Made by a program: the position numbers and the translations under genes. Positions 18,176-64,000 of a stretch of 64,000 nucleotides of DNA are shown in pieces; the first letter of the stretch is position 1, and each line of letters starts with the position of its first letter. The notes beneath the pieces were generated by a model, which made no database searches, was not told the origin of the DNA, and was given only the letters and a program-made list of their open reading frames with translations. The DNA comes from Paraspadella gotoi (Eukaryota; Animalia; Chaetognatha): assembly GCA_051294375.1 (NCBI GenBank), contig CM119271.1, positions 13,259,039 to 13,323,038 on the forward strand, in the 5' to 3' direction.

Positions 18176-20977
18176 TCAAGTTTCCTCGACGTCATCGAAA
18201 TCGGAAGAAACTCGTGGCGTCAAAAACGTCCTCGACTCGCGACCCAGTGTGACCGCGTTCCACGAGAGAACGCGACGTATTCGACCGATGAAACGATCTT
18301 TCGGAATCGATTTACGAACCTTAAGAGTAAATAAGATGCAATCTTCTATTGACTAATCATTTGACCAAATTGTATCAGGAAAAACTCTTATTTAGTTGGG
18401 ACTCGAGCTTGTGGAGTTCTAACCCTAGTCTGTCCAAAGTCAGGAGTCAAATAGCGTATTTCTTGAAAGAATGGATAATTTTAAAATAGGCTTTAAACTA
18501 AATTCATCAAAATATTTGGTTAAAGATTTCGTCATAGTTTTTTTGTTGAAACTGCTCACTGATAAAACTGAGCAGTTATTGTAATTGTATTATGTCCCCG
18601 ACCATATCAAAAGTACGACTAATTATCCCCGTTTGGCATACCTGTCCAAAAAAATATGTTCCCGGAACCCAACTGTTCAGACTATCATTTCAAATATTTC
18701 TCCAATGATTTCTTGGCCATTGATGTAAACATTAACTTTTCCGGACGAAGTGTTCATCTTGAACAACACCTGAAATTTGACAAAGAACGATCCATTTTAT
18801 CTTGAATTACGGAATTAGATCAAGTTTTCGAGTTTAAGATTAGGATAGAGATTAGGGTTAGGGATTAAGTTAAAGATTAGGTAAGTGATAGAGGTTAGGG
18901 ATTTTTTGTGATTAATGTTAGGGATTTAGATTAGGGAGTAGCTTTAGGGTTAGAGGTTAGGTTAAAAAATAGATTTAAATTAGGGTTTAGAGTTCAGTAT
19001 TAGGTTAGGGATTTGGGTTAGGGATTAAGTTAAAGATTAGGTAAGTGATAGAGGTTAGGGATTGGTTTGTGATTAATGTTAGGGATTTAGATTAGGGAGT
19101 AGCGTTTAGGTTAGAGGTTAGGTTTAAAAATTAGATTTAAATTAGGGTTTAGAGTTCAGTATTAGGTTAGGGATTTGGGTTAGGGATTAAGTTAAAGATT
19201 AGGTAAGTGATAGAGGTTAGGGATTTGGTTTGTGATTAATGTTAGGGATTTAGATTAGGGAGTAGCGTTTAGGGTTAGAGGTTAGGTTAAAAATTAGATT
19301 TAAATTTAGTTTAAGTTCAGTATTAGGTTAGGGATTTGGGTTAGGAGATTAAGTTAAAGATTAGGTAAGGATAGAGGTTAGGGATTTGGTTTGTGATTAA
19401 GTGTTAGGGATTTAGATTAGGATAGTTAGATTAGAGGTTCAGGTTTAAAAATTAAGGATAAGAGTTTAAGGGTATAGAGTTCAAGATTAGGTTAGGATCA
19501 GGGTAAGAGATTAAGTTAATAAGTTTAAAAACATATTTAGATTAAATATTAAGGTTGACATTTGTGTTTAATACTTTCTTTTTCGTCGCGTTTTATTTAA
19601 GAAAAAAATTTATGAGACAGTAAATATTGTTAAGTGTTAGTGACAGAACCCTTCAATATTAGCTGTCCCTGAGCTTCGGATCAGGATGTAACACCGTGTA
19701 CAGACGGGTTAAGCGACACGTCCCTCTTAACTGCTAGGCGACCAACGGGCGAGAACCCCGGACCTTTGGGTTGGGAGGCGAATGACTTGCCTCCTGCACC
19801 AATGGCCGCAGACGAACGGTTGGTGGATTTTAGTCCACAATACAATTTTAAATTGAGCGAACTACGCTCGAATGACAAATGACAGTCGGACATCTCGTTG
19901 TTTGCTCGATTAAAAATTGTTTTTCCTAAATATTAAGGTTAAAACTAAGTTCCGGGAAAAGCGAAAACCGTCACGCATTCATTTCATTTCAAGATTTTCA
20001 ACTCGATCCTGCGTTCTAAGTTTCCCGCCACGATTAACCTGAATCCATTCCTCGATTTTGACCTCGTATTTTTCAGAATAACATTCTATGATCTCATTTC
20101 CCTGGCGTAATTCAAAGGTGACGTTTTTAGGTTGAAATCGCAATCGAAACGCGCGTTCGGCAGGCGTCACGTGATAATCGAAGATTGTCGTTCTTCCGTC
20201 GATGGAAGCAAAGTTGATTTGGAAGAGAAGGACGAACTCATTGACCTCTGAAATGTCTAGTTTAAGTTCGGCCAGAGCTTTGGGTGAGGCGGCCGGAAAA
20301 TGTAGGCAGGTCCTGACTGAAGGGACTAGGGGGAACAATAAATACAAATATTATCCAATTATTAGTTGCGCCGCGAGTAATCGCGGAGCAACTCTATAAG
20401 TCATTTTTTGGTCGGTCTGTCGGTCCGTCGGTATGTCTGTCAGTCGGTCAGTCTCATTTACGTTAAAAATGCTCTTAACTTGCATATAGTTGGTTGCTCA
20501 TTTGTTTACAGGAAAAAAACCTCAAATCTAAGGGACTCCTAACGCCGCCTTCAGGAAATCCTAAAAAAAGAATAAAAGACAATATATCATAAATATACGG
20601 GCTAAAAAGGTTATGGTAATCATGTCATGTAATGTAACAAGAAACATATGTGATAAGGCAGTCACTGCGGCGCAACACATTTGAATACCGTTCTTGTTCG
20701 ATTGAATATTCTGCCCCTGACTTTGAACAGGCTATAGTGAGATCAGGGCTCTGTTCCTGTAGCAAGATAGTGACATAGTGGGACTCTGCAATCTTGTAAT
20801 CAAGATGAAGTGGTATTATCTCTCACGTATATTTGTATGAACATATTAAGTAATAAAAAGGGACTACTGTAAAAGAAACTATTGTACTTGGCGGTAGCAT
20901 TTAAATCTAGGGTGCTTATTGATATGAAATTAGTACAAACAATAAACAAACTATCCTTTAACATGATAATAAAAACG

Positions 20978-24158: not shown

Positions 24159-24991
24159 ATCTGTCCAAAATCGAATTATGAGAAAAAAGTGAGAGAGAGA
24201 GAGACCCCACCTTTGGTAGATGTTTTTGGCGGGAAAGTTTCGCTCGATGGAAAGAAACTCGCAGACTTTTTTTGGGTAAGTTAGTTTGAGAAATTAAAAA
24301 GTAAGAGGAGAGGGAAGAAGCCATCTTTGGCTATATTGTTCAAAAGTCGCTCATTTCGGGTTATATTTTGAATTAAGTTAAAGATTAGGTTTAGGGTTGG
24401 GGATAAGAGATAAGTTAAGTTAGAGTTAAGTTAAGTTAGAGTTAAGTTAATTAGGGCTTGTGGTTAAGTTAAAGTTAGATGTTATGTGTTTAATATTTAA
24501 TATAAAAACTTTCAAATTACTTGTTTCACTATTTTATGAAGGATTTAGTAATTAATCTATATTATTTATACAAATATATATTGGTTTCTTTCTTAAAAAT
24601 TAATGTTCAGCCTGTAAAAGAAAGAATAAGAATAAATCAATGAGAAAAACGTCAAGCTTATAATCGATTAAGAAACTTTTATTTCGGTAAAACAAAGACA
24701 AATTTGCTGATCAAGTCCTAATGTAATTTCCTCGAAAAGAGAAAAGAACAAATTTCTCTTTGACTCACAAAAGTCAAAATTTATCAAAAACTTGATTTCG
24801 ATATTTGAACAATTATTTCGTTTTTAATTATACTTCGGTAAAAAGTCTTTTTTTCCAAAATGTTTTTTAAAAAAAATTCAATAACTTTTTCCGCTCTCTC
24901 TCCTCTCTCTCTCTTTCATTCCCGCCTTTCTCTTCTTCGGGAAACTTAATTGAATTCCTGACTTTGCCTGAGGGATCAGTCGAATGGGGAA

Positions 24992-25190: not shown

Positions 25191-26190
25191 TGAGAAGAAG
25201 AGAGAGATGATAGGAATCCGGATGGAGATTGATTGTTTGATTGGTAGTTAATGGGTGAAAATGATTGAAAAGAAAATTATTGTTAAAGCAATTACCCCGT
25301 TACTGAGAGCATTTCTCATTTATTTCAACAAACCGAGCATAAAATATATTTACATACTAATGGAACGTAGTCAACGCTGTCAAAAAAAAAAAAATTGAAC
25401 GATATTTTCTTCATCTAACGGTTGTTCATTCCAAAACTAACTTTACAAACAAATTTTAAGACTAAACGATCTAAAAACATTAATTAATTTTATTTAAAAA
25501 AAAAAACTCGATTTGAATAAATATTTTTTTAATTTTTTTAAACCTAAATTTTTTTACTTTTCGATCGTGAGCGGATTACAATAAAATATTCATCGATGAC
25601 AACTGTATTACAATTAAGGCGTCACAGAGACAAAACAATTACGCGCGAATTTAGATAAATAATTAATACAAGGTTGCGCGCGGGTTTTTTTTTAGGTAAA
25701 TAATTAATACAACGTAGTAGATAATAATCAGTACAAACGATGCGATATCACTGTGGCAATTTGTTTTTTAAAAAAAATTATGAGAAAAATATGTAATTAA
25801 AACGAGTTAGTTAATATATATTTTTTTGTTGATTGCCAAACTAAGGAGAGAAATTTTTGGTTTTGGTTTTGTTTTCCGTTTTCCTTCGCTGTTCCATTCT
25901 CACCCTTGTTGTTGTTGTCGTTGTTCTTTTCTCTCTCATTTAGTCGGCATACTCAAAAACATAGAACATGGAAAAGTAAAAGAGAGAGAAATAGAAAAAG
26001 GGAAAAGAGAGAGAAAAAGTTGAGAGTCCAGCGTTTGACTTCAGCAAGAAAAAAAAAAGGAAAGTAAATGCCGTGATCTGATTGGCTCGTTCGCGCGTTG
26101 CCTTTTCTTTTATTATTGTGGGAGATTTAATGTTTCGATGTTGTTTTCGTTGTTGTTGTTGTTGTTTTTGTTGTTGTTGTTGTTTTCGGT

Positions 26191-29100
26191 TTAACGGTAT
26201 CTGGCCAATCTGTAGTTGACGTAGTGTTGCATCTGTGAGGAGAAAAGAGATTACGTTTAAAGTTAATTTAAAGTTTATTATCTAATTTAATTTAACATGT
26301 AGTTTATTGTAATATGTAGAAAACTAATATTTAAAAGCAGAATGCAAAATTACTTTCACCCACCTTGTAATAAAGCTTAAGTAGCGCTCCTTCCTCACCA
26401 GAAACCTGGATGATAATGTTTAAGATTAAACGTTTTTAATTGATCATTAAAAACTTGCTAATACCGATGCCATTAATTTTACAGCGGGTATACATTTCTT
26501 TAGGATTAAAATAAGTTCAAAATGTGAATATTTCCTATTAAAAAATAAAAAAAATATTAAATGTAAATGAATTAAAAATAAATAAATGATTAGATAATAA
26601 AAAAATCAATAGATAATGTTAGATAATATATAACTAATTATAGTAATAGATATTAACAAGGTCCTCACCCCGATTCCCTCGTTGGAGAGTCTCGCTGCCC
26701 TCATGAGTTCGGAGGTGATGGTCGATTGAAGCTCCTGTTAAAAAATATTTTTTTAAAAATAAACAAATAAACTAATAAGTTTAATGAATATTTTAGCTTT
26801 TTGCGGTTCACACATCGCACATCAACTGCAATTTTTAAAAAAAAAGAGTTAAACATAATAATATTGAAATCTACGCAATCAAATACGAAATAAATCTAAA
26901 TAAATCTAAATAAATCTAAACGAGGTTGAGGTTCAAATGAGCAGAGACCGAAAAAAAATTTCACCGCAAAAAAAAAAAGGAGAATTCGAAGCGAATTTCC
27001 CTGTAGACGGCAACCTCCATACAGTGTGGTCCCTTTTGAAAGAAATGTTCTTAGACCCACAAGTCATATTTAATTTTCTTTTTTAAACATTATAACATTT
27101 AAACATCTATGCTTGTTTTCTTTTTTTTTTAACGAAGGTTTCTCCGCGGTTTTTTTTTTTCATATAAATTTGTGTAAACGAAACAATTTAAATACTAAAA
27201 AGAAAAACTACTTTCAAACGCGAGACCATATCCAGAAATGTGTAACTATGTGTCGGCTCATTGAACCTTTTAACCTCTTACGCCACATTATATATTATAT
27301 TCACCGCATTTAATCATGAATATATATTAATATCAAATTACTTACATTCAGACATAGACGCTAAGAACCGTTCGTGCATCCATCTACATTGTTTGTTAAA
27401 CTGTGTTTTTTTTTTGTTTTGAAAGAAGAGGAAAACCAAAGGAAGAAAACATAAGGGGAAGTATTCTGTTTTTTTCTGTTTTTTCTGTTTTTTTTTTTTT
27501 TGTCTATCCCGACGATCGCGAACTCAAAAGGGCAGCACTTTGGGATTTCTAGAAGAATCCAACTGTCCGCGGATGAACTGTTGAATCAATGAGCGAGCAA
27601 ATATAAGGACAAAGATAAGGACAAAAATGAGACAAAGGACAACGACGAGACAAAATAGGGACAATCATAAAGACAAAGAGATGAGAAAATAAGTCCCTAG
27701 CTCATCTATGCCTGGTTCTACAAAATGTGATTTTTTTTTTTGGGAAAAAACAATAGCGACACCAAGCATTTCTGGATATTTTGGTCATTTCTGGTCATTT
27801 CTGGTCATTTCTGGTCATTTCTGGTCATTTCTGGATGCGTATATTCTAAAGTATTTTGAACGGTATTAGCGACTTTGTTTTTTGATATTTAAACTGTTTT
27901 TTATAAAAAAAAAAAATAATTGCAGGAGCCACCTTCCTTGCTTGCCTTGTTACGAAAGAACCAAGCATAGATGATATTTGTTTTATCTAGAGTTTAAAAT
28001 AAAAAAACAAATTTGAATTCTGAAGGAAGGTTGGCGACTTAATAGCATAAAATTAAAACCTGAAATCGGAAAAAAAAATCAATTAGGGTAAAAAAAATTC
28101 ACGGCATTTTAAAGTTTTGACTTTTGCTTCACAGAAAAGGGAGAAAACGGTGATGAATGCGAAGAGTAAACAAATAAGATGGTCAGTACCAATGTCCTCC
28201 TGAACTGCGAGCAAAAATCACGGAAAATTAAAATAAAACTCAGGAAACTTTGGAATATAAAATATCAATTTATTTAGTTGTATTTTGAATGTCATCTTCT
28301 GAACAATTTTCTGTGTCGTTTTTGTCCTATGAAAGACATTGATATCGTCGGACATTTACAAAAAGAAAGAGGAAACGTTGAGCAAACAATTCAAGAGTCG
28401 ATTTCATACCTAATATCGCAAAAGGTTAAATATTTCCTCGTCCAAATATGGAGGAGGAGGAGGAAGTTCAATTTCCTAATAAGGGGATCGTTCAGATATT
28501 TATAGGATTGACTTTATAACAATTTTGTCACTTTTCAGAAGGCATTGATATAACCCTTTTGAACTTTTTTGAAAAATATATGACAGAAGAGTGAGTGTGA
28601 GAGAGAGAGAGAGAGAGAGTTTATTTTTTTACTTATTCATTGATTTCAATCAAAGTATTTCTTCGTTTTGAAAATCTCTCCGTCAGAATATGGGGGAGGC
28701 GGGGGCATTTTTATGTCCTGTTTAGATAAGGTAAACAAACATTGTATCGCTTTGTAATAAAATTTAAATGAACGGGCAAAATTGAATCCCCTGTTTAAAG
28801 TTTTAGGTTTTCTTTATAACATAACAGTTTAGAAGATGTAAACTAACATTAGCCTCCTGAGTTTTATTATCAAAAAAACATTTTGATTTGATTTGAGAAG
28901 CAGAAGCAAAATTAAACTTAAAAATTAATTATTTAACCTGTTACAAAATAATAAAATTTAAAAAAAAACAAAAGAAATATTCTGTCTAATATCTATTAAA
29001 GCATAACGTGCTTAAAAAAACAAAAAAACAAAAGACGTTCTACTCACGGAGATGGATTGCCACATTTCGTGCTTCCCTCAAGAGTCTCGTGGCCGCTTTG

Positions 29101-30224
29101 TCGAGGCGACCAATCTCTTCGCCGATCGTGGAGATCTCGCCCTTCAACGCCACCTTGTAGCCCGGCCGAGATGGCGCGGTTCTTCAATCCGTTGTAGCCT
29201 GAAAATGGGGGGAAAGCGGTTTGTTGTATGGAAGCTTTAAAGACGTAAGGTGGCGTGACTTGATGTTAGAAACGTCTGCTTTAAAGTGGCCAGTATTGTT
29301 AATCTTTAATAATTTTCTTTCATAGCAACAAAGTCCCTGTACTAACAGGCACTGGCAACTCATTTCTATTCTCTCTCGCATGGGGCTTTCTCTTTATTAA
29401 CTAGAGCAGTCCTGCATGAACTTGTCCTTCATTGTGGCCAAGTCTCTTAATCTTGGCCTAAATAAACTCCCTACTCACCCGAGATGGCCTGCGTGAACTA
29501 GTCCTTCATTGCGACAAAGCCTCTTTATCTTGGCCCAAATAAACTCACTACTCACTCGAGTTGGCCTGCATGAACTAGTCCTTTGTGGCCAAGTCTCTTT
29601 ATCTTGGCCCAAATAAACTCACTTCTCACCCGAGCTGGCCTGCATGAACTCGTCCTTCATTGCGACAAAGTCTCTTTATTTTGACCCAAATAAACTCCCG
29701 ACTCACCCGAGCTGGCCTGCGTGAACTTGTCCTTCATAGCGGCCAAGTCTTTGCCGGCGTTGGTCTTCTCAATGGTCATCGTCTCCTTGGCGTTTCTCAA
29801 CTCGCCCTGGAGCTTGGTTCTCTCGGAGGCGATGGTCCTCTCCAGGTCGGAGAGGGCGTTGGCCGCTTGGACGTTGCGGTTCTCTATCTGTTTGATTTCG
29901 TCGGCGATTTCACCGGTAGTGGCTCGCTCCTTCTCGGCGGCGGCTTTGGTGGTTTCCAATTTCTGTAAAGGTAGGCGAAGGGCAAGGTAAGTTAAGGTAA
30001 GGAGAATGTGAGATGGGGAAGCCAGAAAAATCTTCGTCATTTATTTGTATATGATCTCGGAGTGTTGGCTTTTGGCTGGAATACTATGTTGTGACAGTTC
30101 GATATTTGCTGTTGCTATTAGTGTCTTAACTGTTGCACCAATGTTTTTGTGTGTGTGTATCGCCGACTGTCTCTCTTTCCCGCCCTCTCTTTCTCTCTCC
30201 CCCTCTTTTCTCTCTCTCTTCCCT

Positions 30225-30300
<76 letters not shown>

Positions 30301-33300
30301 TCCCCCTCTCCCCCTCTCCATCCCTTCCCCCCTCTTTCTCCCTCCCACTTCTTCTCACCTCCTTCAGTTCCCTGTTGATCTTCTGCACGGCCTCCCGCTC
30401 TGCGACCTTGGAGTCGAGTAGAGCCTGCAACTTCTCGAATCCCTCGGCCATCATCTTTCTCCTCTCCTCTTCCTCCTTCTTCTTGCGGATCTTGGCCCCC
30501 TCGGAGGTGACCAACATGTAGAACTGGTACCTGGAATTGGTCCGGGAAGAAAGGTTTTAATTGGTCGTTTGATTGATTGATTGATTGATTCATATTGATA
30601 AATTGGCGACTCGAAGATCCATCGATGATTGATAGATCGATAAAGAAAATAACTTGTTCGCTTGTCTTTTTTAATTTAATGCTATTGATTGCTTGATTGA
30701 TAGTTTGACTGACTGACCAGCAATATCTGTCCGATTTATAAATTCACTGATTAATTAATAGTTTAATCAATTAATCGCCAAATTGTCAGTTTATAAAATT
30801 AAAACAATCAATAGATAAGTTGTTGAGTGATTGAAATAATGAGTGAGTGGTTTAATGGTTGATTTTTTTTGGTCTTAAGATTGATTGATTGATTAGTTCA
30901 TTTATTCTTTGATTAATTAATTGATTGATTGATTATTTTTTTTATTGATTGATTGATTGATTGATTGATAGCCTGATTGATAGATTTATCAATCAATCAA
31001 CTCACCATTTCCAGTTCTTGCACTTGTAATAATTCCTGATGTTGTTCTGGATGGAGGCGATGGCCCTCTTCTCCGCCGCCTTCTCCTTGTAAGTCACGGC
31101 GACGAGACACTTGCGGATGTGCGCCTGCATCTTGAGGACGATGACGGAGAGGGCGCTCTCGCGGATCTCCTCCAGTTTGGAGAGGCGACCCGCGCGGAAC
31201 ATGATCTGAGCGACCGCGGGGGATAAAAAAAAATTCTTATATGAAAATTGACAGTTTTATGATTTAAAGAAGTAAATAAAAATAATTGTTTTTTATTCTT
31301 CGAGTTTTAAGTAATGATTATTTACATTTATGATTGTTTTCCGTGTATTTTAAGGAAACGATCGTATTAATATAAAAACTTTCTGCCGTAAGTTTTTTTC
31401 TGTTTTTGTACCGCGAAGAATTTGGCGTTAATTACCAAAAACGCGCCATTTCGGAATTAAAGGATTAAAAATAAATATTAAGGTTAAAATTAAGTTAAAA
31501 TTAAGTTAAAGTTAAAATTAACAATCTAAATGGGTCGCTCTCCGAAAATAGTGCCGTCCTTACCTCTTCCTCGCCCTTTTTCAAACCCACCTTGGTGTGT
31601 CCAGTACGGAAATCGTCGGGGTCCATCCCGGCGGCGGGCAACGCCTTGTTGGCGCATGACTTGGGGTCTCCCTTCATGTCGGCGAAGATCTTGGGCTGCA
31701 CGATGGAGTATCTGGCCATGAAGTCGGCGTAGGGAACTTTGTTGGGCAGACCCAACATGCAGATGCGGATGCCTGAAGAAAAAGTCGTTTTTGTCGTTAT
31801 TGTTGTTGTTGTCGTCGTCGTCGTCGTTTTCGAGAAGCGAACAATAAATGAATTCGAACTCGCAGTCATTAAAACGAGCAAAAAAAATTATTTTTTTGAT
31901 CAACGGATGAATCGATTAATCAACCAATCAATTAATCAACCAATTAATTAATCAATAAATAAAGAAATAATTAACTCAATAAATTAATCCGTCAATGAGT
32001 CGATCAATCAATCGATCAATTAGCCAATCAAATCCATCAAATCTAATAAAATCAAATCAAATCAATCAATCAATCAAATCGATCAATCATCAAATCTATC
32101 AATCAAATCATATAAAATGCACCTTCCAGCACTCCGTTGCAGTTGAGTTGATGCATGACCAACGGGGCGTCGATGTGACCCGACTTCTTGATCTCGTTGG
32201 GGATGATGCAGCGGACGAAATGAGGATGAGTCGAGTGCAAGTTGGTCATCAGCTTCAGGAGAGACTCCCTGGGTGAGTCAAGAAAAAAGGTAAGTTAGGT
32301 AAGGATTTTATACAAAAACGTTTGTTAGTTGTTTTATAGTTAATATTTTTGATAACCCGAACGCTTTCTTGAACAAAAATTCCAAATCTTAACTTTTCCA
32401 ACTTGCCAAGCAATTAGGTTTAACAGTGAAAGCTTGCAGGATGCTGATATGTTAATGTGATGGAAGCTTTAAATCACCAAAGCCTGTACAAAGTCTGGGG
32501 CATGATAGCTTATTTATTAAATGAATGGATTATTTTTAAATTGATCGCACCAAATTTCACGACTTCTCCCAAATGTTTTTTTCCAACTTAAACATTCCGA
32601 TCATAAAAATCTACAACATTATTCAAGATTCACTTTTTCAAACGAAGCCTCGACCATTCACGACCACATAGCCCGTCCCCAATGACCGGAGACCCACAAA
32701 TGCCACCCACAAATTCCCACGCCTCTCGATACGAACCTGTGGGCGGCGGAGATGGTCATCATAGAGGAACCCTTCTTCTTCTCTCCAGTCTCTTGGAAGA
32801 CGAGAGCAACGACGGCGTTGGTGGCGCCTTGCATCATGTTGATGACGGCGTCGTTGACGGGATCCTGTGGGGGAGTGTGGTTGAATGGAGGGTGTGGTTG
32901 AATGGAGGGTGTTGTTGAATGGAGGATGTGGTTGAAGGAGGGTGTGGTTGAATGGAGGATGTGGTTGAATCGAGGGTGTTGTTGAAGGAGGATGTGGTTG
33001 AAGGAGAGTGTGGTTGAAGGAGGATGTGGTTGAAGGAGGATGTGGTTGAAGGAGGGTGTGGTGAACGACGAAGATGATGACAACAAAGAAGATGACGAAG
33101 ACATAAAAAAAAGAATGAAGACAAAAAAGACGATGACGACGACGAAGACGACGTCGATCAAGACATGACAAAAGGAGACTATTTTGACGAAAATGACGAA
33201 GAAGGAGAAGATGAAGTTGACAATGATGACAGCGATAAAGTTAACAATGACATCGACGATGGCGGAAAAGATGATGACAAAAACGAAAATCGCAATGACA

Positions 33301-36300
33301 ATGACAGCGATGTAGATAACAATGAAATCGACGATGGCGGGAAAGATAAAGACAAAGATAAAACCGAAAATGGCAACAAAAAAAAAACAAAAAATGCTTT
33401 AGATTTTTAATTCTGAGTAATTAAAAATCTCATCAAAGATTAAACTGAAAACTAAATTAAGAATGTTATTTTAACGGTTTAATCCTACTCTAAAATATAA
33501 TTATTAATTTGAAATTCAATTAAAAACCCGAATAAAATTTGTTTTACTTTAAATGTGTAATTTTAATTTAATTCCTACTTACGTTTCGACTGTACAATCC
33601 TATTTAAATACCAACCTTGTTCTTGAACAACCAGCCGGTGACGTTGTAACCGACAGTACCGGCGTAGTGGTAAACCTCAAAGTGAGCCTCTGGCTTGCCC
33701 TTCTTGGCCGGCTTGGGCTTGCCGAAGGAATCGTGCTTGCCCAAGTGCTTGCCAATGAGCTTCTCGAGATAGGTCTTGTCTGTGGCCTTGGGCACGATGC
33801 ACTCCTCCTCCAACATGGAGAGGAGCCGCATCTTTTTCTCGATCAGCTCGATGGTCTTCACCAGATTCATGCCAAAGTCGATGAAGGCCCATTGGATGCC
33901 TTCCGCCTTGTACTCTTCCTGCTCTTGGACGAACATGTGATGATTGAAGAACTGCTGCAGCCTCTCGTTGGTGTAGTTGATGAGGAGCTGCTCCAAAGAC
34001 GTTGAGTTCGAAGATCTCGAAGCCGGCAATGTCCAAGACGCCGATGAAATGCTTCCTCGGGTTGGGCGTGTCCAGAGAATCGTTGACCAGGCGGACGATC
34101 CAGTCGAACAGGCGAGCAAAGAGGGACTTTGAAGTGGCAGAGACAGAGAATGCCACCTGATCGACATTCTGTCCTTTCTTTACGTAATCCTTGCCGACCT
34201 TCAACTTTGGCTTCATGAAGGTGTCGACGAAGAAGTCGGGGTCGATGCCGAGCAGGCTAGCGCATGACGTAACTTGGTCCATGCCATCAGGCTCTGCCTG
34301 CTCTTCGCGACCCTTTTGCTTCCACTTGGCGTTGCCCAGATGGGCAATTGCAATGGTGGCTTTGTAGCAGCCTTCCTTGTCGGGCTGAGAAAAGCCCAAA
34401 GTGTCCAGGGCAGTGTCAGTGGCCCTCATTTCCTCGGCATCGTCCATGCCAGCGACGGTCAGCACACCCTGGCTGATGAAGTAGTACTGGCCAGGATCGG
34501 GGTTATTTGACAGGCCGCACATGGATGGTACTGTGGGTAAGCGTTGGTCATCAGCTGGTAGAAGATGTGGTAGTTTCTCTCGATCTCCAGCTGAGAATGT
34601 GATGCGGGATTTTCTCCAGCAGGTAAGTTTCGATGTCGGCTGAGGCGATCTTCATGTTGGGGCCGAAATGGATACGGATGAACTTACCCTAGTGGAGAAA
34701 AAAAAACAAAGAGAGGTATTTTAGATGGTGTTTTGCCGATTGGTTTTTTGTTTTTTTTTCACGAGCCTCATATCTAATGTCATTTTAATATTTTGTATTT
34801 ATAATTTTAAATAGGAATACTTTTTTTTTCCGATAATCATGTTAGTACGCAAAAATTGAATAGAAGTATATCTGTTGCCTTTTAACTTAAGTACAATGCA
34901 GTAGTATTTTTAAAAATAATTTAGCTAAAAAAGCGAGAAACAGAAAAAGAGCCACATAATTATATAGAGAGTTGACCTAACTGCTGGTAGACCTAAAAAA
35001 TTATTAATAATTACGTTTTTGTTTTTGTTTTCATATTTATGTTTTTGTGGTTTTTGTATTTGCGTATTATTTAAAAAAATATTAGAAATTCTGGTGTTTA
35101 TTTAAGTGGCGTCATCTTCGGTCATTCACGTCTTCAATATTCTACTCATGTCATTTCATGTCATGACAACTCACGAATCGAGAAGAGTTGTTGTTTCTGA
35201 CTGTCTTGGCATTGCCGTAAGCCTCCAACGGAGGGTTAGCCTGGATGATCTGCTCTTCAAGAGACCCGGCGTTCTCGGAGGTGGCGGCCTTGGACTTGGC
35301 GGCGTTGGGGTCGGCGCAGTTGAGGGCGTAGTACTGCAACACCTTCTTGGTGTTCTCAGTCTTCCCGCTCCTGACTCGCCGGTGATCAGTGAGGACTGGT
35401 TCTTGTGCTCTGGTGAATTGGAAATGTGAATGATAAATAAATGGTAACTATTATAATAATGATGAGTATAAAAAATATTTTTTTACAGGTTATATATCTT
35501 ATGAGCCAAAACCTAAAGAGAGAAAAAAAAAAAACCCGAAAATTATAAAACAAAATTGTTTTCATGTAATAATTTAAACTTACAAATTTACAAACAACTT
35601 CTCCCTCTATAAGTTTGTTATAACTTTGACAAAGAATATTACAAATTTTTACAAATGTTAAATATTACAAATTTTTACAATTTTTTACCAAATTAAAATA
35701 AGAAATGTAAACAGCAACTTTTATTAATGTTTAATTTACGTTTGCTTTTTTATTCCATCCCAACTCAGCCCTAAATGATTCTAGCGACCTTACCCACAAT
35801 TCAACTCACCCATTTCCAAGAATTGCAAGGCCCCGTCAGCGATGGCGTACAAATGCGGCGGCGCCTCGTTTCTCCTCTTGTTCCTGTAGAAATCTCTCAT
35901 GATTGGCGTGTAGACCATGAGCCACTTGTAAGGGTTGATACAGATGCAGAAGAGGCCAGAGTAGGTGTAGATCTGAAGGACCTTGTAGCGGGTCCTCAGG
36001 TTGTGAAGAACGCAAGCTTTGTTCAAAACGGACAGGTTGGACATATCCTCTTCCTGAAAAAGGAAAAGAGTCGTAGTTTGTTTGTAGGTATTCTAGGTCA
36101 TTAATTTGTAAAGATAAAATATATTATAAAGTCACTATTTTTACATTGTAAAAATTTATTATAATTATTGTCAATTCGAAAATAAAAATTTTATTTTGAA
36201 TTTTAAATCAATGAGACATCAAACATATTAGATGAGTTATATACATTAAATATATTATGTAAGTAAGACGTTAAAGACATTAAATGAAACATTGAATACA

Positions 36301-36815
36301 TAAAATAAATTTTAAAAATTGATTATTTTTACATTGTAAAATTAAATATTTTTAAATTTTAAATAAATAGGGCAATTTTTACATCTTTTGTCAATTTAAT
36401 AATAAAAACATTTATCATGCTTCCCTCATTTTTTTTCCTTCTAAACTAAGAACAAAAAAAAATACTTTGTTTTGTTTACCGACGTAAACAAAACAAAGTA
36501 ATTTTTGTTTACGTCGAATCTTTTGTTTACCTTTTCGAATTTTGGCGGGTTTCTCTCCAAAACTTCCGCCTTAGGCAGAGTCTTTACTTCGTTCTTCGCC
36601 GTCTCGACTTCGATTGTCTCCCCGTTGTCCTAAATGAAATAATATTGATCTCCTATTCGTTTCTATTACAAGCAGCCGTAGTAGTATCTACGAAATATGC
36701 CATAACTCGTCACCATCAAACAATAAAACAATAGTCTAATCTATAAATCCATCAATATCTCGAACAATTAATAAATCTATTAAAAATTCAATTAATAAAT
36801 AAATAAATCGATAAT

Positions 36816-36847
<32 letters not shown>

Positions 36848-37289
36848 CCAATAATCAATTAATTATTAGATATCAAGTAATCTATATCTAAAAATCAATC
36901 TAAATGAAACAATTCTATCAAAACATCAACAAATAAATGAAAAATAATAGGCAATAAATAAATTAATCAATTAATATCCATCAAGCGATCAGTATCTTAC
37001 CAGCAATAAATGTGAATGAATCACATAAAGTGCTTTATTAATTAATTAATTAGTTTATTTATGAAGACTCACCGATTTGACTTTTGCCTTGATGAAAACT
37101 TCCTCCACATCCGACACCCATCGTTCAGTCTGAGTGAGAGGGAGACAAAAAGGAGATGAAAGGTCAACATAACTGGAAAAGGAGGAAAAAATATAGAGAG
37201 GGAGAGGAATGAAAGAAAGAAAAAAAAAGGAAAAGAAGGAAAGAAAGATGGGTCAACAAGATGGGACCTAGAGAGAGAGAGAGAGAGAG

Positions 37290-37356
<67 letters not shown>

Positions 37357-37590
37357 AAAAAGCAAAATAGATACTAGATAGAAAGAAAGATAGACAGATA
37401 GATTGATAGATACCGAGATAGATAAATAGATAGATACCTAGATAGAAAGAAAGATAGATAAATAGACAGACCGACCGACCTTAGCGTCGAAAGGAGCGCT
37501 TCTCTCCTTGAGGAGCTCATTCATTGGACTCTGCAGCCACAACCAATCAGGATGGTTGGGCGAAAGACGTTCCTTCTTCTTATCGGCCAT
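26191..37590 (-). CDS. Mhc: Class II myosin heavy chain-like protein with short tail (myosin A)
   Basis: Exons 37590-37480 ([37 protein letters not shown]), 37129-37073, 36629-36531 (NPPKFEK), 36053-35810 (IYTYSGLFC), 35409-35175 (GESGAGKT, NNNSSRF), 34688-33616 ([27 protein letters not shown]), 32864-32737, 32268-32123 ([17 protein letters not shown]), 31772-31591, 31205-31006 (2 IQ), 30530-30359, 29962-29707, 29198-29048, then candidate 26734-26669, 26405-26364 and 26232-26191 (stop). Several 1-bp indels must be assumed, and the terminal exon choice is inferred. Confidence 0.9.
28410..28475 (-). CDS. Candidate alternative terminal exon of myosin A: [21 protein letters not shown]
   Basis: ccttattag acceptor, phase 0, 22 codons to TAG, immediately followed by a gtatga donor; protein-level similarity to 28646-28717. 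Confidence 0.6.
   Translation of the reverse strand, partial: EIELPPPPPYLDEEIFNLLRY
28646..28717 (-). CDS. Candidate alternative terminal exon of myosin A: [23 protein letters not shown]
   Basis: ctaaacag acceptor, phase 0, 24 codons to TGA; homologous to 28410-28475. Confidence 0.6.
   Translation of the reverse strand, partial: DIKMPPPPPYSDGEIFKTKKYFD
29400..29750. repeat. ~70-bp tandem repeat derived from the myosin exon 3' end and splice donor (~5 copies)
   Basis: Unit ggcctgc(a/g)tgaact(a/t)gtccttcattg..ccaagtctctttatcttggcccaaataaactc...actcacccgag; the last copy is the real exon end. Confidence 0.88.
32875..33062. repeat. 16-17-bp minisatellite (tgtggttgaa[t]ggagg[a/g]) abutting a myosin splice acceptor
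   Basis: Direct reading; produces the spurious QPHPP ORFs. Confidence 0.9.
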
Positions 37591-38174
37591 AATTTCGGTT
37601 CGACGGTGGAACTGGAGTCAGAAGATTTGAGATTTATTACCGGAGATTTGGAGATTTATTATTTGTGATTGGAAGATTTTTTATTGGAGATTTGGAGATT
37701 AGGAGATTTGAGAAATATGGCTTGAGATTTGAGGGTTTGATATTTTAGATTAAAGATTTGGACATTTGGGATATAACATTTGATATAACATTGGGTAACA
37801 TTATAACATTGGATTTGTGATTTGAGAATTGAAATTTGAGATTTCTAAATTTCTAAAATTCATTCGAATAGAAATTTCAAAAATTTTAGGATTAATATTA
37901 ATTTAAAATAAAAGATTTTAATTTTAAAGAAGAAATCATACCTTTTGATGACAAAAAAAAACCTTTTTAAAATCCTGGAGACCCCAGACTGGACGGCTGT
38001 TTCAACCTGATTTAAAGGAGAAGCTCTATTTATACTATTAATACTGTTATTACTATAAATACTATTTTATTTATCATTTAACGTTTAAAGAACTAAATCG
38101 CGATACATTCAAACGTTGGACAAAAAAAAAAAAAAAACCCCCACGGAACGTTGGGGCACTTTTTTTCTTTTTAC

Positions 38175-38252
38175 CTGCGAAACGTCTTCGTCCACTAAAA
38201 AAAAAGCGCGCGGTCTGAAGTGGCCTCAACCCGGGACGCCCTCTCTTTTATA
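38175..38252 (-). promoter_or_regulatory. Putative core promoter (TATA + Inr-like) and non-coding first exon of myosin A
   Basis: Minus-strand TATAAAAG at 38252-38245, CCACTTCAG with the A 31 nt from the TATA start (38221), and a gcag|gtaaaa donor at 38175. Confidence 0.6.
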
Positions 38253-39166
38253 CGCCGACAATTTTTCACGGAACGCGAAATACGGGGGGGGGAAAGATCT
38301 ACCGGGAATGAATCCAAGAGAGAGGGGGGGAGTAGGAGGGGGGGGTTGGTGACATGAAAAAAAAACCCTACGGGGCTGAAAAGAGCCCCTAAACCCACTC
38401 GATTTCTCTCCGGGACCTTATTTTCCGAAAGCGTTTCGTTTTAGGTTTAATTTAGAATTAAAGAATTTTTTTTTTAAATAAAAGAGACAATTTAAACAGT
38501 TAAGACGATAAAAATATAAAACGATTTAAAACAATATGACATTCAAACAATAAATGAGTATTGAGCAAGACTAATTGCACTGATGGCACTAAAAATAAAA
38601 AATAAAATGCAAACAATTAAGCATCATTGCGGACACTGCAAATTGGAAAAGTATTAAGTATACTAATAAAAATCGTGAGTAAATATTATCATTATATATA
38701 TATAAGATATATAAGATATAAGAATATAGGATATAGGTTTTGGCATTTGGTTAAAGATATGGTTATGGTTTTGGTTTGTGATTAGGGTTAAGGGTTCAGT
38801 TTGAAGATTTTAGGATAATATGTTATACAATTTAATAATATATGAGTGAAACAAATTCAACTTTTATATTTATTTTAAAATTTAATTTAATTCAGTTTCA
38901 TATAATTAATAAGTAATAACAAAAAAAATTTTCATACGATTATGGATTGGTAATGAGGATCAAAAATTAGAATTAAGAATTAGTTTAGGCTTTATTCATT
39001 TTAAAAAAGATTGGGGTTAATTCTTTGAATTAAAATTAGGAACGGAAACGGGTCACTTTGAGAATATAGTGCCGATCCCTCTTCTTTTTCCTCGGCCTCG
39101 AATCGCACCTTTTCTCCGGTTCTCTCTTTCGATTTCACGCACGCGAATCTCTCTCTCTCTCTCTCT

Positions 39167-39215
<49 letters not shown>

Positions 39216-39433
39216 TCTTTCTTCTCATTCCTCTCCTCTCCCTCAACATTAATCCCTCCGCCAAAAAAAAAAAATGAGTTAAAGATTTCCCGCATTATAA
39301 ATCCACGCGATCCTTTTTCTTTTTCTCGATCAGTTCCTCGTAACACTTTCCTCTCTACTCCTCGGTTACAATCCCCCGAGAATCGTCATCCGCTCGACTC
39401 GAATAGCNNNNNNNNNNNNNNNNNNNNNNNNNT

Positions 39434-56714: not shown

Positions 56715-59700
56715 ATGGCCAAGGAACGCCCTATCCCCGAGTCAATCCCGATTGGATCTGGCTGCAGACCCGCCGATGAACGAGCTTCCTCAAGGAAGGA
56801 GCGACGCCCTTCCGACGCAAAGGTGAAGGGACGAGAAGGGTGAAGGGGGGGGTGGCGCCGGGGAATTGAATGGAGACGCCAACAGTCCGGCGCCGTAAAT
56901 GGTCGAGGTTTTGCCGGAAATTTCGAAAGCGGGATGCAATGGATTAAATCGAAATCATCGTTTAATTTAAAATTTTATTCCAATATTGAAAATTTTACTA
57001 GATTATATACATAAAATATCATCAAAATTTTGAATGATACTTTTATCATTTTAATGATAACTTTAAAAAGATTTTATATTTTGTTCCGTCTAAAGTAGAA
57101 ACAATTTTATTAACGATGCAATAAAAATGTAAATCATCTAAAAAAGCAACAATGAAAATCGTAAAAACTATTTATAAATTATTTTGATGTTTCAAATTTA
57201 AAAAAAACCAAAACATCTGAGATTTACGATTTTATTTTATTTCTTTTATATTTCTTTCCTAATTTTCTAAATTGTCTAAATCTTACATTAATATTTATCA
57301 ATTACTGAGAATGGGTGCTTGGGGTTTCGTCTTTCTGGAACAATGGAACACTATAACAAGGATGGAATTAGTTTCTAACCTTTGATGACCCCCAACTAAC
57401 ACAACAAACCGCCCCCCCCATTAGACCGCGTGTTGGGTTAGCGGATCCGGAGGAAGTCTAACATCAAAGAAACCATAAGCAAAAGACCAAGGAGATCAAA
57501 AATGCGAAAAAGTGGCAGACGGCGAAGAACACTGTCGTCACGTGCCCAAGGCGGAAGTGTTGGGATGAGGAATCCGCCCAAATTTGAGAAGGTTAATTTT
57601 TTGGGGATTGATTGGGTAGAACTGATTGATTTATTTGATTGATCGTTTGCGTCAGAGGTGATCGATAGATTGATGATTTGATTTAGTGATCGAAACGAAA
57701 CGTTTAATTTTTTTTTTTATTGATATTAAAAATTATGCTAATGTGGAAATTCGATACGTAAAAGTTTTAGATTTTAATCAAATTTATTTGTCAAAAATCA
57801 AAGCATAAAATTGGTATCGATATTTCGAACTAATGAACAATCTCAAAAATAAGAGTAATAATGTTATCCCCCCCCCCCAGGAAGAAGACATGTCGAACTT
57901 GTTCCCGTCCTCAACAAAGCCTGCGTTCTCACACAATCTGAGAACGCGTTACGAAGTCCTTGCAGATCTACACCTACTTCTGGCCTCTTCTGCATCTGTA
58001 TCAACCCCCTTAACAAAGTGGCTCATGTTGTACAACTCAGGTCATGAGAGATTACTACAGAAACAAGAGAAGGAACGAGGCGCCGCCGCATTTGTACGCC
58101 AATCGCTGACGGGGCCTTGCAAATTCTGGAGAGGGTGAGTCCAAAGGAAACAATGAAATGGAGGTCGAATAAAGCCTTGCTTCAGAAAAACTAATAATGA
58201 AAGACTATTTTTTTTTTTAAATTTATTGCAAAGTTTTTTTTTGATAGTGTTTAAATTTATTTTGAATTTTAAAAAATATTTTTTGACAGTTTTTTTTTTT
58301 GGCCTCCACTAAAACTGTATTAATTTTTTAATCTTTGGTTAGACAATTTGAACTACAATCATTGTAATATTAAATGAAATGTGCAAAAAGTGTGCAAAAA
58401 AAAATAATATAAACGACTTTTTTAAACCATCTTAATTAAAACATGTATCAATGGACAAGAGCCAGCAAGAACCAGTCCTCACTGATCACCGGCGAGTCAG
58501 GAAGGCGGGCCAAGACTGAGAACACCAAGAAGGTGTTGCAGTACTACGCCCTTCAAACTGCCCGGGCCCGACCAACGCCCCCCCCCCCGGGCCCCCCCAA
58601 GTTTTTCCAAGGCGGCCAAGTCTGAAAACGCCGGGTCCTCTTGAAGAGCAGATCATTCAAGCCAACCCGCCGTTGGAGGCGTATGGCAACGCCAAGACTG
58701 TGAGGAATAACAATTCCTCAAGATTTCGTAAGTAGTTTAAAGTATGCCAAAGTGTTGGTTAAATAGATTACTGAAAATCATGCATTAATCAATTTTATAA
58801 AAAAATCAATACAAAAAATTAAGTTATTGAAATAAAATTTAAATTTCTAAGAAACTTTCAAAATAATTTGTTAAACTATTTCAAAACTATTTTTAATATT
58901 AAAATATATCATTTTTATTCAATTTACATATTTGTACTTTCTATTTTTTCGTTCTCCTAATATTTTTATTGTTTAAAATTGAATTATAAACGTTAAAATC
59001 TTCCACTAGGGTAAGTTCATCAGAATCCATTTCGGCTCCAAACATGACAGATCGCCTCAGCCGACATCCGAAACTTACCCTGCTGAGAAGTCCCGCATCA
59101 CATTCCAGCTGGAGATCGAGAGAAAACTAACCACATCTTTCTACCACCGATGACCAAATGCTTATCCCTCAGTACCCCACCAGTGCGGCTTGTCAGAAAA
59201 GCCCTGACCCGGCAGTAACTACTTCATCAGCCAGGGTGTGCTGACCGTCGCTGGATGGGACGATGCGAGGAATGAGGGCCACTGGACACTGCCCTGACAC
59301 TCTAGGGCTTTACTCAGGCCGACAAGGACGCTTGCTAAACAAGGCTACCATCGCCATCGCCCATCTGGCACGCGAAATGGGCGCCAAAGGGTCGCGAAGA
59401 ACAAGCAGAGCCCCGACGCATGGACGAGGTCATTCTTGCTCAGCTGGCTCGGCATCGACCCCGACTTCTTCGTCGACACCTTCATGAAGCCCAAGTTGAA
59501 GGTGGGCAAAGATTTCGTGAAAAAAGGTCAAAAGTGACCAAGTGAATTTCTCGTTTCCGCCACGAAGCAAAATCTCTCTTCGCTGTTTTTTTCGATTGGA
59601 TCGTCGCGTTGGCAACGATTCTCTGGACACGACTATCTCTGTCTCGCCCAATACCCCGAGGAAGCATTTCATCGGCGTCTTGGACATTGCCCGGCTTCGA

Positions 59701-62700
59701 GATTTCTAGAGCTCACGTCTTGGAGGCAGCTCCTCATCAACTACAACCAACAGAGGCTGAGCAGTGTTCTTCAACCATCAACATGTTCCGTCCAAGAGCA
59801 GAAAGAGTACAAGGCGGAAGGCAATCCAATGGCCTTCACATCGACTTTGGCATGGATCTGGTGAAGACATCGAGCCTGAATCGAGAAAAAGAGGGCGTGC
59901 TCTCCATCTTGGAAGGAAGAGTTGCATCGTCCCAAAGCCTCCGACAAGAACCTTCACTGGAGAAGTTGAATGGGGAAACATCTTGGGGAAGCACCAATTC
60001 TTTCGTGAGCCGAACCGCCGAAAAAGGGTCAACCCCGAGGCCCCAACTTTGCTCTGTTCATTACGCGCCCCGGCGTTGTTGGAATACAACGTTACTGGTG
60101 GTTGGTTTAAGAAATAAGCGTCAGTTTCAAATACTTCTCATGGCGTTTATTCATTCATTTATTCGTTCTCTAAACTTTTAACGTTTCAATTATTTCAATT
60201 CATTCATCATTCATCATCATTTCATTCATTCCATTCATTCATGCGCCATTCATTCATTCATTTTTTATTCATTTAATAAATTCTCAACTTCATTCATTCA
60301 TTCACGACTTCACATTCATTCATTCATTCATTCATTCACTCATCACTTTTATCTTCAGGAACCCCGTGAACGAGGCCGTCGTGAACATGATGCAGTCCGG
60401 CCTCCAATCAAGTTCGTGGCCCTCGTCTTCACCGAGAAGGACCACCGGTGAAAAGAAAAAGGATCGGCGCTCATGACATCTCAGCCGCTCACAGAGAATC
60501 GTTCACAAACTCATGAACAACTGAACTCGACTCACCCTCACTTCGTCAGGTGAGGTTGGATGAGGCGGGGGGTAAGGTCAAGGGAATAAACTAAGTTGGT
60601 CTGAATCTTTGGAATGGTTTTAAATGGTGAAGTTAGTTATCGTCGATTTGTGAATGAGTTCAAGCGTCTCAATTATGAGACATGACGTGACGTGACAAGG
60701 CATTTTAAAGAACTGTTTTCTGTCATTTTAGTGAATAGAAAGTCAAATTTTTTGAGACAAAGTTTGGTTCGCAATATAAATTTATCCGCATTCGAAAAGA
60801 TTCGTGGTCAAACATCTTTTTGGTGATGTGAAGGATAAGTTCTTAGGTCGGTAAAGTGACCTAACCTGAGATAATCGTGGCATAGCTTTGTAAATTTTAT
60901 TGACCTTGTTATTTATCTTTTGCTTATCGATTGATTTAATCGTATTTTAGATGCATTCAATTCCAACGGATCAAAAATCTGGTCCACATCGACGCTCGCT
61001 TGTAATGCAATCACCACCTGCAACGGAGTGCTCGAAGTAAGTTTATTCGTTTTCGAATTATTAGAAAGTTGAATGTCCAAAGCAGTGTTGTATTACTATT
61101 ATAACGAATGAAAATATCCAAATGGTTATCCAAGAAAGAAATGTTTTAAACCATGATGTTGTAATGTATCATCTTCTATATCCTTTCCCATAATGAAAAT
61201 GTAGCTTAATAATTTTATACATTTGTAATTGTTAAAAAATAAAAAAAGTCTTTATTGGTAATAATATTTAAAAAAATTTTTACCAATTTTTGTTCAAAAC
61301 CTTAAACGCCTTCATTTCACACAAGTCCGTACATGTACGGCGTACACGTCTCACCATGTCTCACCAATGTTCCCCCACCCTTCAGGCATCCGCATCTGCA
61401 ATGTTTGGGTCTGCCCAACAAGGTGCCCTAACTCCGCTTCATGGCGCGCTATTCCATCGTCGCCCCAAAAAGATCTCCGCCGACATGAAAAGGACGACCC
61501 CAAAGGGTGTGCCAATAAGGCTTTGCCGCCTCGGGTCTCGACCCGATGATTTCAGGACAGGGCACACTAAGGTTTGATTCTTGTCTTTGTTTCTGTCCTC
61601 TCTCTGTCTCTCCTCTCATCTCTCTCTCTCTTTTCTCTCTCTCTCTCTCTCTCTCTCGTTCTTTCTTAATTTCTTTTCTCTCTCTCTCTCTTTTTTTGTT
61701 TGTCTCTCTCTCTTTCTCTCTTCTCTCCTCTCTCTCTCTCTCCTCTCTCTTCTCTCTCTCTCCATCTCTCTCCTCTCTCTCCTCTCTCGTTTTTTCTTAA
61801 TTTCTCTCTGTCTTCTCTCTTTTGGTGTTTGTTCTCTTCTCTCTCTCTCTCGTCTCTCTCTCTCTGTCTCTCTCTCTCTCCTTCTCTCTCTCACTCACCT
61901 CCCAACCCACCGACGGTTGATGTTCCGCGCGGGTCCGCCCTCCAAGCTGAGGAGATCCGCGAGGAGAGCCCCTCTCCGTCATGTCCTCAAAGTGCGCGCG
62001 CACATCGCAAGGTGTCTCGTCAGCGTCACCTACAAGGGGAAGATAGCGGAGAAGAAGGCCATCTTCTCCCATTCAGAAAACATCAGGAATTATTTACAAG
62101 ATGCAAGAAACTGGCCATGGTGAGCGTTAAATAAAAGAATCGACCAATCAAACTAATAATCAATCATGAGAAGAACTGATCAATCAAAAAAAAACAAATC
62201 ATTGAAACAGCCATTCAATAAATCGACCGATTGAAGCTTTTTTTTTTATGCAATAACAAATAACAAATAAATCAAAATCAATTCAATAATCTATTGGCCC
62301 GAATCAATCTATTCTTCAACCAATAAAATAAATTAAAATTAAGACCAACATTGAATAAATCATCACCGGTTCAATCAATCACTCGAATTATTATCTATAA
62401 ATCAATTGTTGGAAATCTCTGCACAACCGACCCATATTGATTAATTCAAACGTTGGATCGTAAATGATCAAACAAACCAATCAATTAGCAAAAATCTACT
62501 GTTAAACCGAAAATCATCAAACAATCATTTAAACAATCAACCTTATCGCCATTTCTTAAATTATTAATCAATCATGCGAAAAAACTGACAATCAATCAAA
62601 CAATCGGTTTGAACAGCCATCAATAAATCGACATGAATTGCTCTTTTTATTCATTCATAACGATTCGTCAGTCAATCGCTAATTAAATCGTCCAATCGTA

Positions 62701-63599
62701 GACTCAATCGACCAATCAATCAATCACAATCTACCACCAGTTCTAGCATGCTGGTCGTCTCGGAATCGGCCAAGATCCGCAAGAAGAAAGGAGGAAGAAG
62801 AGAGACGCCGATGAGGCGCCGGGTTGGAGAAGCTCAAGGCTTTCTTGGAAAGGAGAAGGTCCAGGGGAGGGAGAAGGTGCAGAAGGTCAAACGACGGACT
62901 CAAAGGGTGAGTTAAAGAGCGGGAAGGTCGTGGGTAAGATCGTTGTGTTGTTGTCCATCTGGCGAGGAGTGGAATAGCGATGCTGGCGCTAAAATTGGAT
63001 TAATATTATTCGATTCAAAGCGAAATGGAATTGTTTTTTAAAAAAAAAAATTTCCAGTCAATGAAAGTAAAAGAGAGAGGTTTGTGTATAAATACTTAAA
63101 CTGAATCGTAAGTATTCGAGTATCCACAATGAATTGTAATTCGTTTAGAGTTCTTCCAAATGCTGCAATATGCAAATTAAATGAGTTGCAAGGTTAAATA
63201 AATACTTCATCTCCTTTCAGGATTGAATGATGATATCTACGTCCTCTCTCTCTCTTCTCTTCTCTCTCTCTCTCTTCTCTTCTCTCTTCTCCTCTCTCTC
63301 TCTCTTTCCCCTTCTCCTCCTCTTCCTCTCCACCTTTTCCAGAAAGCCGCCTCCATCCGCGAGGAGCACGCCCGCGAGCTCAAGTCAGCGGCGCCATCGC
63401 CACCGACATCAAATCCTTGGACACGAAGGCCGCCAACGCCGCCGTCGCCCTCACGGATCTCGACGCGGACCATCGTGGCGGAGAGGAACAAGTTGACGAG
63501 CGAGTTGAAGGCACGCCAAAGGAGGTCATGAGTCAGGACCAAGGTCAACATGCAGAAGGAGTTGGCGACATGAGGACAAAGTGGCGCAGCTTCCGCGAG
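56715..63599 (+). CDS. Mhc: Class II myosin heavy chain-like paralog (myosin B), 3'-incomplete in the window, many indels
   Basis: Exons ~56715-56822 (MAKERLSP..PDWIWLQ), 57425-57591, 57881-58134, ~58460-58727, 59010-~60118, 60359-60549, 60951-61036, 61386-61571, ~61917-62119, ~62733-62906, 63343-63599. Colinear with myosin A, but introns are unrelated and synonymous sites differ. Confidence 0.85.
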
Positions 63600-64000
63600 G
63601 TAAGGGGAATGGATGGATGATGGATGGATGGATGGATGGATGATGGATGGAGGAGGATGGATGGATGGATGGATGGATGGATGGATGGATGGATGGATGA
63701 AGGAATTTAATTAATGAATGAATGAATCAATGAATGTATAAAATATTAATGAATAATAGATAAACTAATGAATCAATCAATCAATCCCTCAATCATTCAA
63801 TGACTGAAAAATTAATTAATGAATGATTGAATAATTGAATAAATATATTGAAGAACAAACGACTCCATTATAGAATTTTAAAAATTATAAAACATAGTAT
63901 TTAACAGTTGGGTTTCTTTCTTGGGGCTACAGTGTGCTCCTGTGTAGTACAAAGAATCACATTGTCTTTAACGTCTGACGACGATTACAATGAGCGACTT

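Follow-up and report, generated by a model that had tools for sequence, protein, structure and literature searches.

The stretch of DNA described here, referred to as the window, is a 64,000-nucleotide piece of contig CM119271.1 of the chaetognath Paraspadella gotoi (positions 13,259,039 to 13,323,038; all coordinates below are those of the window). On its minus strand, from 37590 to 26191, lies a gene that combines a striated-type myosin II motor and neck with a 194-residue coil and five alternative last exons, and the window holds a second, separate gene with its own motor and short tail. The family to which these genes belong, a striated-type myosin without the filament-forming rod, is a real new variant of class II myosin.

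Thirteen common exons, with AG/GT sites at all of them, lie between the ATG (37590) and a phase-0 donor (29048), and the common body comes to 1,019 codons once frame slips are allowed for. The ends that follow are all phase 0 and lie in the order c (28717), b (28475), d (27577), a (27400) and e (26734), giving products of 1,042, 1,040, 1,036, about 1,039 and 1,068 residues, respectively. In the features given below, P0046 is a complete relative, other P numbers are further relatives, and L001 is a relative's intron-free contig that joins exons 12 and 13 to the three exons of end e (e1-e3), a stop and then the untranslated region (UTR).

33616..37590, minus strand: exons 1-6 (37590-37480, 37129-37073, 36629-36531, 36053-35810, 35409-35175, 34688-33616), N-terminal SH3-like domain and most of the motor, with five frame slips; from splice sites and tblastn with P0046 (76-96% on the larger exons).
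31591..32864, minus strand: exons 7-9 (32864-32737, 32268-32123, 31772-31591), loop 2, SH helix and converter; from tblastn and splice sites.
31006..31205, minus strand: exon 10, end of the converter and two light-chain-binding (IQ-type) segments, to the WxW hook; from P0046 aligned to the squid myosin neck.
30359..30530, minus strand: exon 11, no head-rod proline, a short Lys/Glu/Arg-rich helix and the start of the coil.
29707..29962, minus strand: exon 12, middle part of the 194-residue coil; 77.5% nucleotide match to transcript L001.
29048..29198, minus strand: exon 13, end of the coil, with three frame slips and the phase-0 donor common to every end; 85% nucleotide match to L001 with two 1-base gaps and one 2-base gap.
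28646..28717, minus strand: alternative last exon c, 23 residues, PPxY motif; same end in P0023, P0043, P0066 and P0074.
28410..28475, minus strand: alternative last exon b, 21 residues, PPxY motif; same end in P0021, P0051, P0070 and P0126.
27524..27577, minus strand: alternative last exon d, 17 residues, C-terminal Leu-Pro-Phe; same end type in P0019, P0025 and P0047.
27338..27400, minus strand: alternative last exon a, about 20 residues, W-x-H-E-R motif; same end in P0001, P0022 and P0039.
26191..26734, minus strand: alternative end e, three exons (26734-26669, 26405-26364, 26232-26191), 49 residues; spliced in that order in L001.
25651..26190, minus strand: 3' UTR of end e; two blocks conserved with L001.
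56716..63600 (approximate), plus strand: divergently oriented paralog in noisy sequence, of the same tail family, its end lying beyond the window.

An initial annotation of this DNA had read three coil exons of about 57, 85 and 50 codons after the IQ exon, and these are found at 30530-30359, 29962-29707 and 29198-29048 (172, 256 and 151 nucleotides, with AG/GT sites). Its statement that no further rod exons follow also holds: tblastn with three full-length myosin II queries, run on both strands of the 64 kb, detected no rod exon, the only matches beyond the neck having E=0.8 and E=1.8, and a scan of the long minus-strand frames downstream of the gene gave simple repeats only. The size it proposed, about 1,050-1,070 residues, fits the longest form, and the short exons with stops that it saw do exist, being in fact five phase-0 alternative terminal exons, each matched by transcript-derived relatives. 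It had also reported a paralog. The plus-strand gene at about 56716-63600 is a real one and has a like tail start, whereas 39433-45100 is a false duplicate: it is a noisy second copy of 33600-39000, at 92.9% identity with 294 gap columns against 51 mismatches, and it is an assembly artefact from an uncorrected long read adjoining an N gap and not a paralog. We also note an intronic 77-bp tandem repeat of 4.5 copies (29410-29750), in which the 3' end of coil exon 12 is copied along with its donor site.

The short tail is not peculiar to the window. Marine transcript assemblies hold 189 complete short proteins of 980-1,100 residues that share the design, and these fall into 11 tail groups at a 60% cut; identity to the group of the window gene is 27-49% for the tail and 81-93% for the motor. 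Searching with exon 12 gave 62 family proteins among 491 candidates of 148-2,000 residues; 23 of them are 1,010-1,068 residues long, with SH3-like and motor domains present, the rest are fragments, and none is longer. With P0046 as the query, 119 of the 120 matches listed (out of 7,842) were JGI or MERC proteins at 67-100%, the remaining one being a lizard myosin at 50%. Among 293 proteins with the family motor signature, 340-379 residues follow the SH-helix motif in 251, about 1,230 in 10, fewer than 340 in 31 and 400-419 in one. A profile of the tail reaches more distant groups that keep the same coil span and carry 21-88 residues after it; run against 1.84 billion representatives, it returned 103 matches, nearly all family fragments, with six repeat proteins judged to be chance, and since clustering at 50% may have placed complete members with conventional myosins, these matches do not bound the family. 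No named organism stands among the sources of the listed members of 23 family clusters. Two very distant members, P0513 and P0532, have the same coil span, no WxW hook and a more conventional converter, and are possibly an early branch of the family. Automatic annotation labels such proteins "myosin heavy chain 6/7" or would treat them as fragments.

Relatives also bear on where the gene ends. L001, a single locus found in a metagenome collection (one of 157 pattern matches), matches the window in two UTR blocks, 26106-26002 (73%, 107 nucleotides, E 2e-8) and 25736-25651 (74%, 87 nucleotides, E 1e-6), and of 138 codons compared with the window 63 are identical, 48 carry synonymous and 27 replacement changes. 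Because L001 ends where the window gene ends, misassembly is excluded for the family and appears unlikely for the window copy. The initial annotation had taken the short tail for a family trait and not a broken gene, and had named misassembly as what would refute it; the 189 complete relatives and the paralog in the window support the former, and the refutation fails, relatives' stops, ends and UTR blocks agreeing with the window.

As for the motor, the family scores 840-961 bits against solved structures of striated myosins and 657-683 against smooth and non-muscle ones, the closest structures and chains being squid 3i5f, water bug 7kog and human MYH7, together with bdelloid rotifer and mollusc chains. 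In a motor-domain phylogeny, a check suggested by the initial annotation, the family takes a class II, striated-type position, nested among protostome striated chains (with a vertebrate outgroup and no non-muscle outgroup); the window's own row there, miscut, is 13% filled, and its placement is taken from segment identities instead. An SH3-like domain (PF02736) is above cut-off in all five complete relatives examined and lies in exons 1-3 of the window, and the P-loop, switch 1, switch 2, relay and SH helix are kept in 187-189 of the 189 relatives. Alignment to the squid neck supports the two IQ segments claimed earlier, ending in the WxW hook, though the Pfam IQ model has no match. The resemblance stops beyond the neck. 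The head-rod proline is present in none of the 189 short relatives, compared with five of five long myosins shown, and a short Lys/Glu/Arg-rich helix stands in its place, while Myosin_tail_1 (PF01576) has no match in five of five short proteins against 518 bits in a long sister. The tail is about a fifth of the usual length, the rod of some 1,100 residues and its distal assembly domain being absent. By its motor the window gene belongs to the striated class II lineage, yet as far as its sequence tells it lacks the defining features of a conventional filament-forming myosin II.

The coil keeps its 194 residues without an indel in 186 of the 189 proteins, despite the 27-49% tail identity between groups. 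Its profile was built on 55 of these proteins, with no more than eight from any group and one aberrant group omitted; hydrophobic residues recur in it with a period of 3.53, alanine makes up 20%, and the net charge averages +1.7, compared with -9 to -15 in four conventional subfragment 2 (S2) regions. Counted per 28 residues, the charge is weakly acidic in the coil's first half (net -1 to -3) and weakly basic in the second (+1 to +2). The power of the 28-residue charge repeat is 0.46 (shuffles 1.02) against 2.7-4.2 for the four S2 regions, a test that is weak at 194 residues, with two of the four true S2 regions (2.71 and 2.86) below the shuffles' 95th percentile of 2.94. Descent of the coil from S2 is plausible: for its last 60 residues, a single S2 offset gives the best fit in four of nine long rods and is among the top three in seven of nine. 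Comparison of the tail profile with solved structures gave nothing under E 0.06. In the ESM Atlas the whole protein led to generic myosin clusters and the tail to scores under 0.9, mostly in myosin-tail clusters, which is a lead only. A monomer model was poor (mean predicted local distance difference test score 54), with one helix at 824-1037, a break and a last helix at 1044-1067, and a predicted complex of two tail copies scored 0.00 twice and gave no answer.

All five ends occur on one identical 400-residue body among relatives (P0019, P0021, P0022, P0023 and P0027), and 15 more sets of relatives carry two to four ends, in one tail group alone or in others; tail groups other than the window's also have versions of ends a and e. 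Ends b and c contain PPPPPY, a form of the PPxY motif that is the class bound by WW domains, and 12 fetched proteins end this way. The last helix of end e resembles the family's first IQ segment, with 14 of 15 distinct closest-group ends beating all 300 shuffles and seven ends from other groups reached by 2-11 of 300; this likeness was spotted before being tested and is a lead only. No transcript-supported end holds a transmembrane or cargo domain, PPxY in two ends being the sole recognizable motif, and the cargo or membrane anchor proposed in the initial annotation finds no footing there. A hydrophobic frame near 28204-28134 was considered as a membrane anchor and rejected, no relative ending that way. 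A sixth end type of about 30 residues, containing proline, was found in another tail group (P0151, P0169, P0368 and P0408) and not in the window.

The same lineage contains a full-length sister myosin, the P0246 cluster (1,905-1,943 residues), with a near-identical motor. Compared with the first 860 residues of a short relative, that motor shows 78% identity, where named chains reach 52-55% over the head, and in segments it is up to 99-100% identical to the short family; the sister keeps the head-rod proline and the full rod, and the likeness of its tail to the short coil is no more than 22-27%. In the motor tree, short and long members fall together in one clade (Shimodaira-Hasegawa-like approximate likelihood ratio test, SH-aLRT, 100), with the long ones nested among the short. 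The sister's rod groups with rotifers, at SH-aLRT 94 with 28 rows and 98 with 20 (eight of the 28, near-duplicates and one long branch, having been dropped), and its grouping with arthropods is rejected (approximately unbiased test, p-AU 0.001). This grouping with rotifers makes a chaetognath lineage likely. Chaetognaths have been placed with gnathiferans, and thousands of their genes are tandem-duplicated (PMC12460157); in plankton biomass they rank second to copepods (PMC2020476). We consider it quite probable that the rod-less family and its sister both belong to chaetognaths, and the short-tail design is likely to be specific to arrow worms. The motor stem of the lineage measures 1.5 changes per column and the rod stem 0.36, as though the motor had been rebuilt once and then held constant.

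Elsewhere in the window, alternating C-type lectin-like and EGF exons on the minus strand at 8900-15300 (Pfam, in three of five frames tested) probably make up one gene for a modular secreted protein. A degenerate repeat rich in TTAGGG-like words occupies 18790-19520, with like stretches at about 24380-24480, 49420-49560 and 54890-55040.

We favor, at a probability of about one half, the reading in which the rod-less protein is a non-filament, two-headed muscle motor tethered by an end tag that splicing chooses. The family would have arisen from the lineage's own muscle myosin through duplication and loss of the rod. The distal assembly domain has an established role in driving thick-filament nucleation (PMC11257479), and because the short chain has neither light meromyosin (LMM) nor assembly domain it should not nucleate thick filaments; we predict that the short protein does not build them. 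Short and long motors, having been kept alike, would share their actin and have similar kinetics when pulling on it. At 0.15 nm per residue the coil comes to about 29 nm, and it may act as a fixed-length spacer, a role to which its invariant length points. The missing hinge proline and acidic S2, together with the short charged helix, would give a stiffer neck and a weaker folded-back off state, the latter being predicted from a coil without acidic S2 character. Splicing would then pick the anchor, with PPxY ends binding WW-domain proteins, while end e may bind a light chain or calmodulin. A striated-type motor like that of the filament myosin, and the many copies in plankton RNA, point to muscle.

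A number of observations weigh against this reading or parts of it. The muscle location, although likely, is drawn from motor type and abundance only. All transcript support comes from the assemblies of relatives. Stretches of motor sequence recur at 100% identity across tail groups and in the long myosin, identical N-termini are found on more than one kind of tail, and the motors do not group as the tails do. Gene conversion would account for this, as would chimeric assembly or the two combined; a good many of the assemblies may thus be chimeras, and there are fewer genes than the protein counts suggest. The trees are quick ones, without bootstrap and with no named chaetognath, annelid, priapulid or monogonont sequence in them, and on the matter of descent the whole-tail profile places S2 ahead of every later piece of the rod in just 1 of 13 cases. 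Eight frame slips interrupt the main copy. Three are in exon 13, while the P-loop exon has one and the 1,073-nucleotide motor exon four, so that the motor, described as intact in the initial annotation, is not so as assembled. The 1-base P-loop slip is absent from the duplicate and the paralog, and most motor slip sites are without a slip in one or the other, which backs the view that they are read errors; the three in exon 13 have no second copy to back it. We regard read errors as the likely cause of all eight. The slips also bear on the idea that the window copy is a piece of an ordinary myosin II, either dead or misassembled, and this idea can draw as well on the region itself, with its noisy long reads and its false duplicate. 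We give it very little credence, as the stops, alternative exons and UTR blocks agree with independent transcripts, the gene pieces read hold no in-frame stop, and synonymous changes outnumber replacements; a dead window copy would in any case leave the family intact.

Of more consequence is the pairing of the coil. In its strictly heptad first half, parallel g-e' pairs in ten group representatives number 13 repulsive to 2 attractive, as extreme a repulsion being reached by 2 of 2,000 shuffles. This is a poor fit to a plain parallel dimer, and the parallel dimer resembling heavy meromyosin (HMM) of the initial annotation is not borne out. Such repulsion, together with the acidic-then-basic coil, leads us to keep as a serious rival, albeit an unlikely one, an antiparallel coil or four-helix bundle that would make a tiny bipolar unit, its heads at both ends cross-linking and sliding opposite actin filaments without a thick filament. 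The fixed coil length, with the same span in five distant members, would suit such a unit, as would the many small or hydrophobic residues at g and e and the high alanine content, and myosin X is a precedent for an antiparallel dimer (PMC10240527). However, the charge bias is slight and the profile was read by eye to fix the register; g-e' pairs, repulsive or attractive, are scarce in conventional S2, which makes for a thin baseline, and the varied C-terminal tags suit an anchored end equally well. It is improbable, in our view, that the short chains instead ride on the sister myosin's thick filaments, adding or tuning heads. In favor of this, the motors are nearly identical in stretches and intermingle in the tree, and non-muscle myosin 2A without its assembly domain does join established filaments (PMC11257479), but most of the rod is still present in that construct. 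The short chains have lost LMM entirely, and their coil has little likeness to the sister's S2 (22-27%) and shows no sign of the rod-packing charge repeat. Still less probable is an unconventional motor that moves cargo or membranes in non-muscle cells. The absence of a rod, the PPxY and the short C-terminal motifs typical of adaptor-binding tags, a known motif class, would fit it, and the charged post-neck helix resembles the lever extensions of transport myosins. Against this, striated-type motors are low-duty in known cases, and here the motor is striated-type and has been kept alike to that of the filament myosin; no cargo, lipid-binding or transmembrane domain was found, and the existence of 11 or more tail groups, many of them recovered complete in assemblies of plankton RNA, speaks for bulk expression in a structural role.

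The family can be compared with several known systems. Myosin X is an unrelated motor class with PH and MyTH4-FERM domains. The likeness to it lies in a charged post-neck helix followed by a short coil (PMC10240527). With bilaterian striated myosin II the family shares the SH3-like N-terminus, catalytic motifs, two light-chain segments and WxW hook, at 52-55% head identity; it differs in having no LMM or assembly domain, no head-rod proline, a neutral alanine-rich coil, five ends and a motor on a long stem (1.5 changes per column). An engineered 25-heptad HMM of human beta-cardiac myosin is alike in its two heads, roughly 25 heptads, similar length and want of a filament-forming rod, but it is artificial and needs a GCN4 zipper, and its native S2 lets the heads fold back (PMC6582153), whereas the natural coil is rebuilt and non-acidic. 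In smooth muscle, splicing likewise swaps a short C-terminal piece, the SM1/SM2 tailpieces, but does so on a full rod, where it tunes filament assembly (PMC2173570).

We found no description of a rod-less striated myosin family in the literature, in a search that most subscription papers and some supplements lay outside. The main text of a survey of 79 myosin classes in which intron positions shared within the motor serve as a criterion for class membership, does not mention chaetognath or short-tailed myosins (PMC5583752), myosin is not mentioned in the main text and three supplements of the chaetognath genome paper (PMC12460157), and in the part of a Spadella preprint available to us myosins appear as markers only.

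Striated-muscle myosin II is defined by its filament-forming rod, and here one ordinary long chain stands beside at least 11 rod-less tail groups. These would be natural, selected counterparts of the HMM constructs that have been built by hand, and they may provide a test of the roles of the hinge proline and acidic S2 in the folded-back off state. Duvert is said to have reported in 1991 that one sarcomere type of chaetognath secondary muscle is without thick filaments. A more ambitious proposal, which we hold to be rather doubtful, is that the family consists of bipolar mini-motors that contract actin without thick filaments, through splice-chosen anchors, and so power the second sarcomere type of that muscle. 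The striation of the secondary muscle has been described as unique, with two alternating sarcomere types (PMC2020476, PMC5054868). While the link between rod-less myosins and these sarcomeres is put forward as a hypothesis, the family would provide a molecular candidate for the unexplained sarcomere types of arrow worms.

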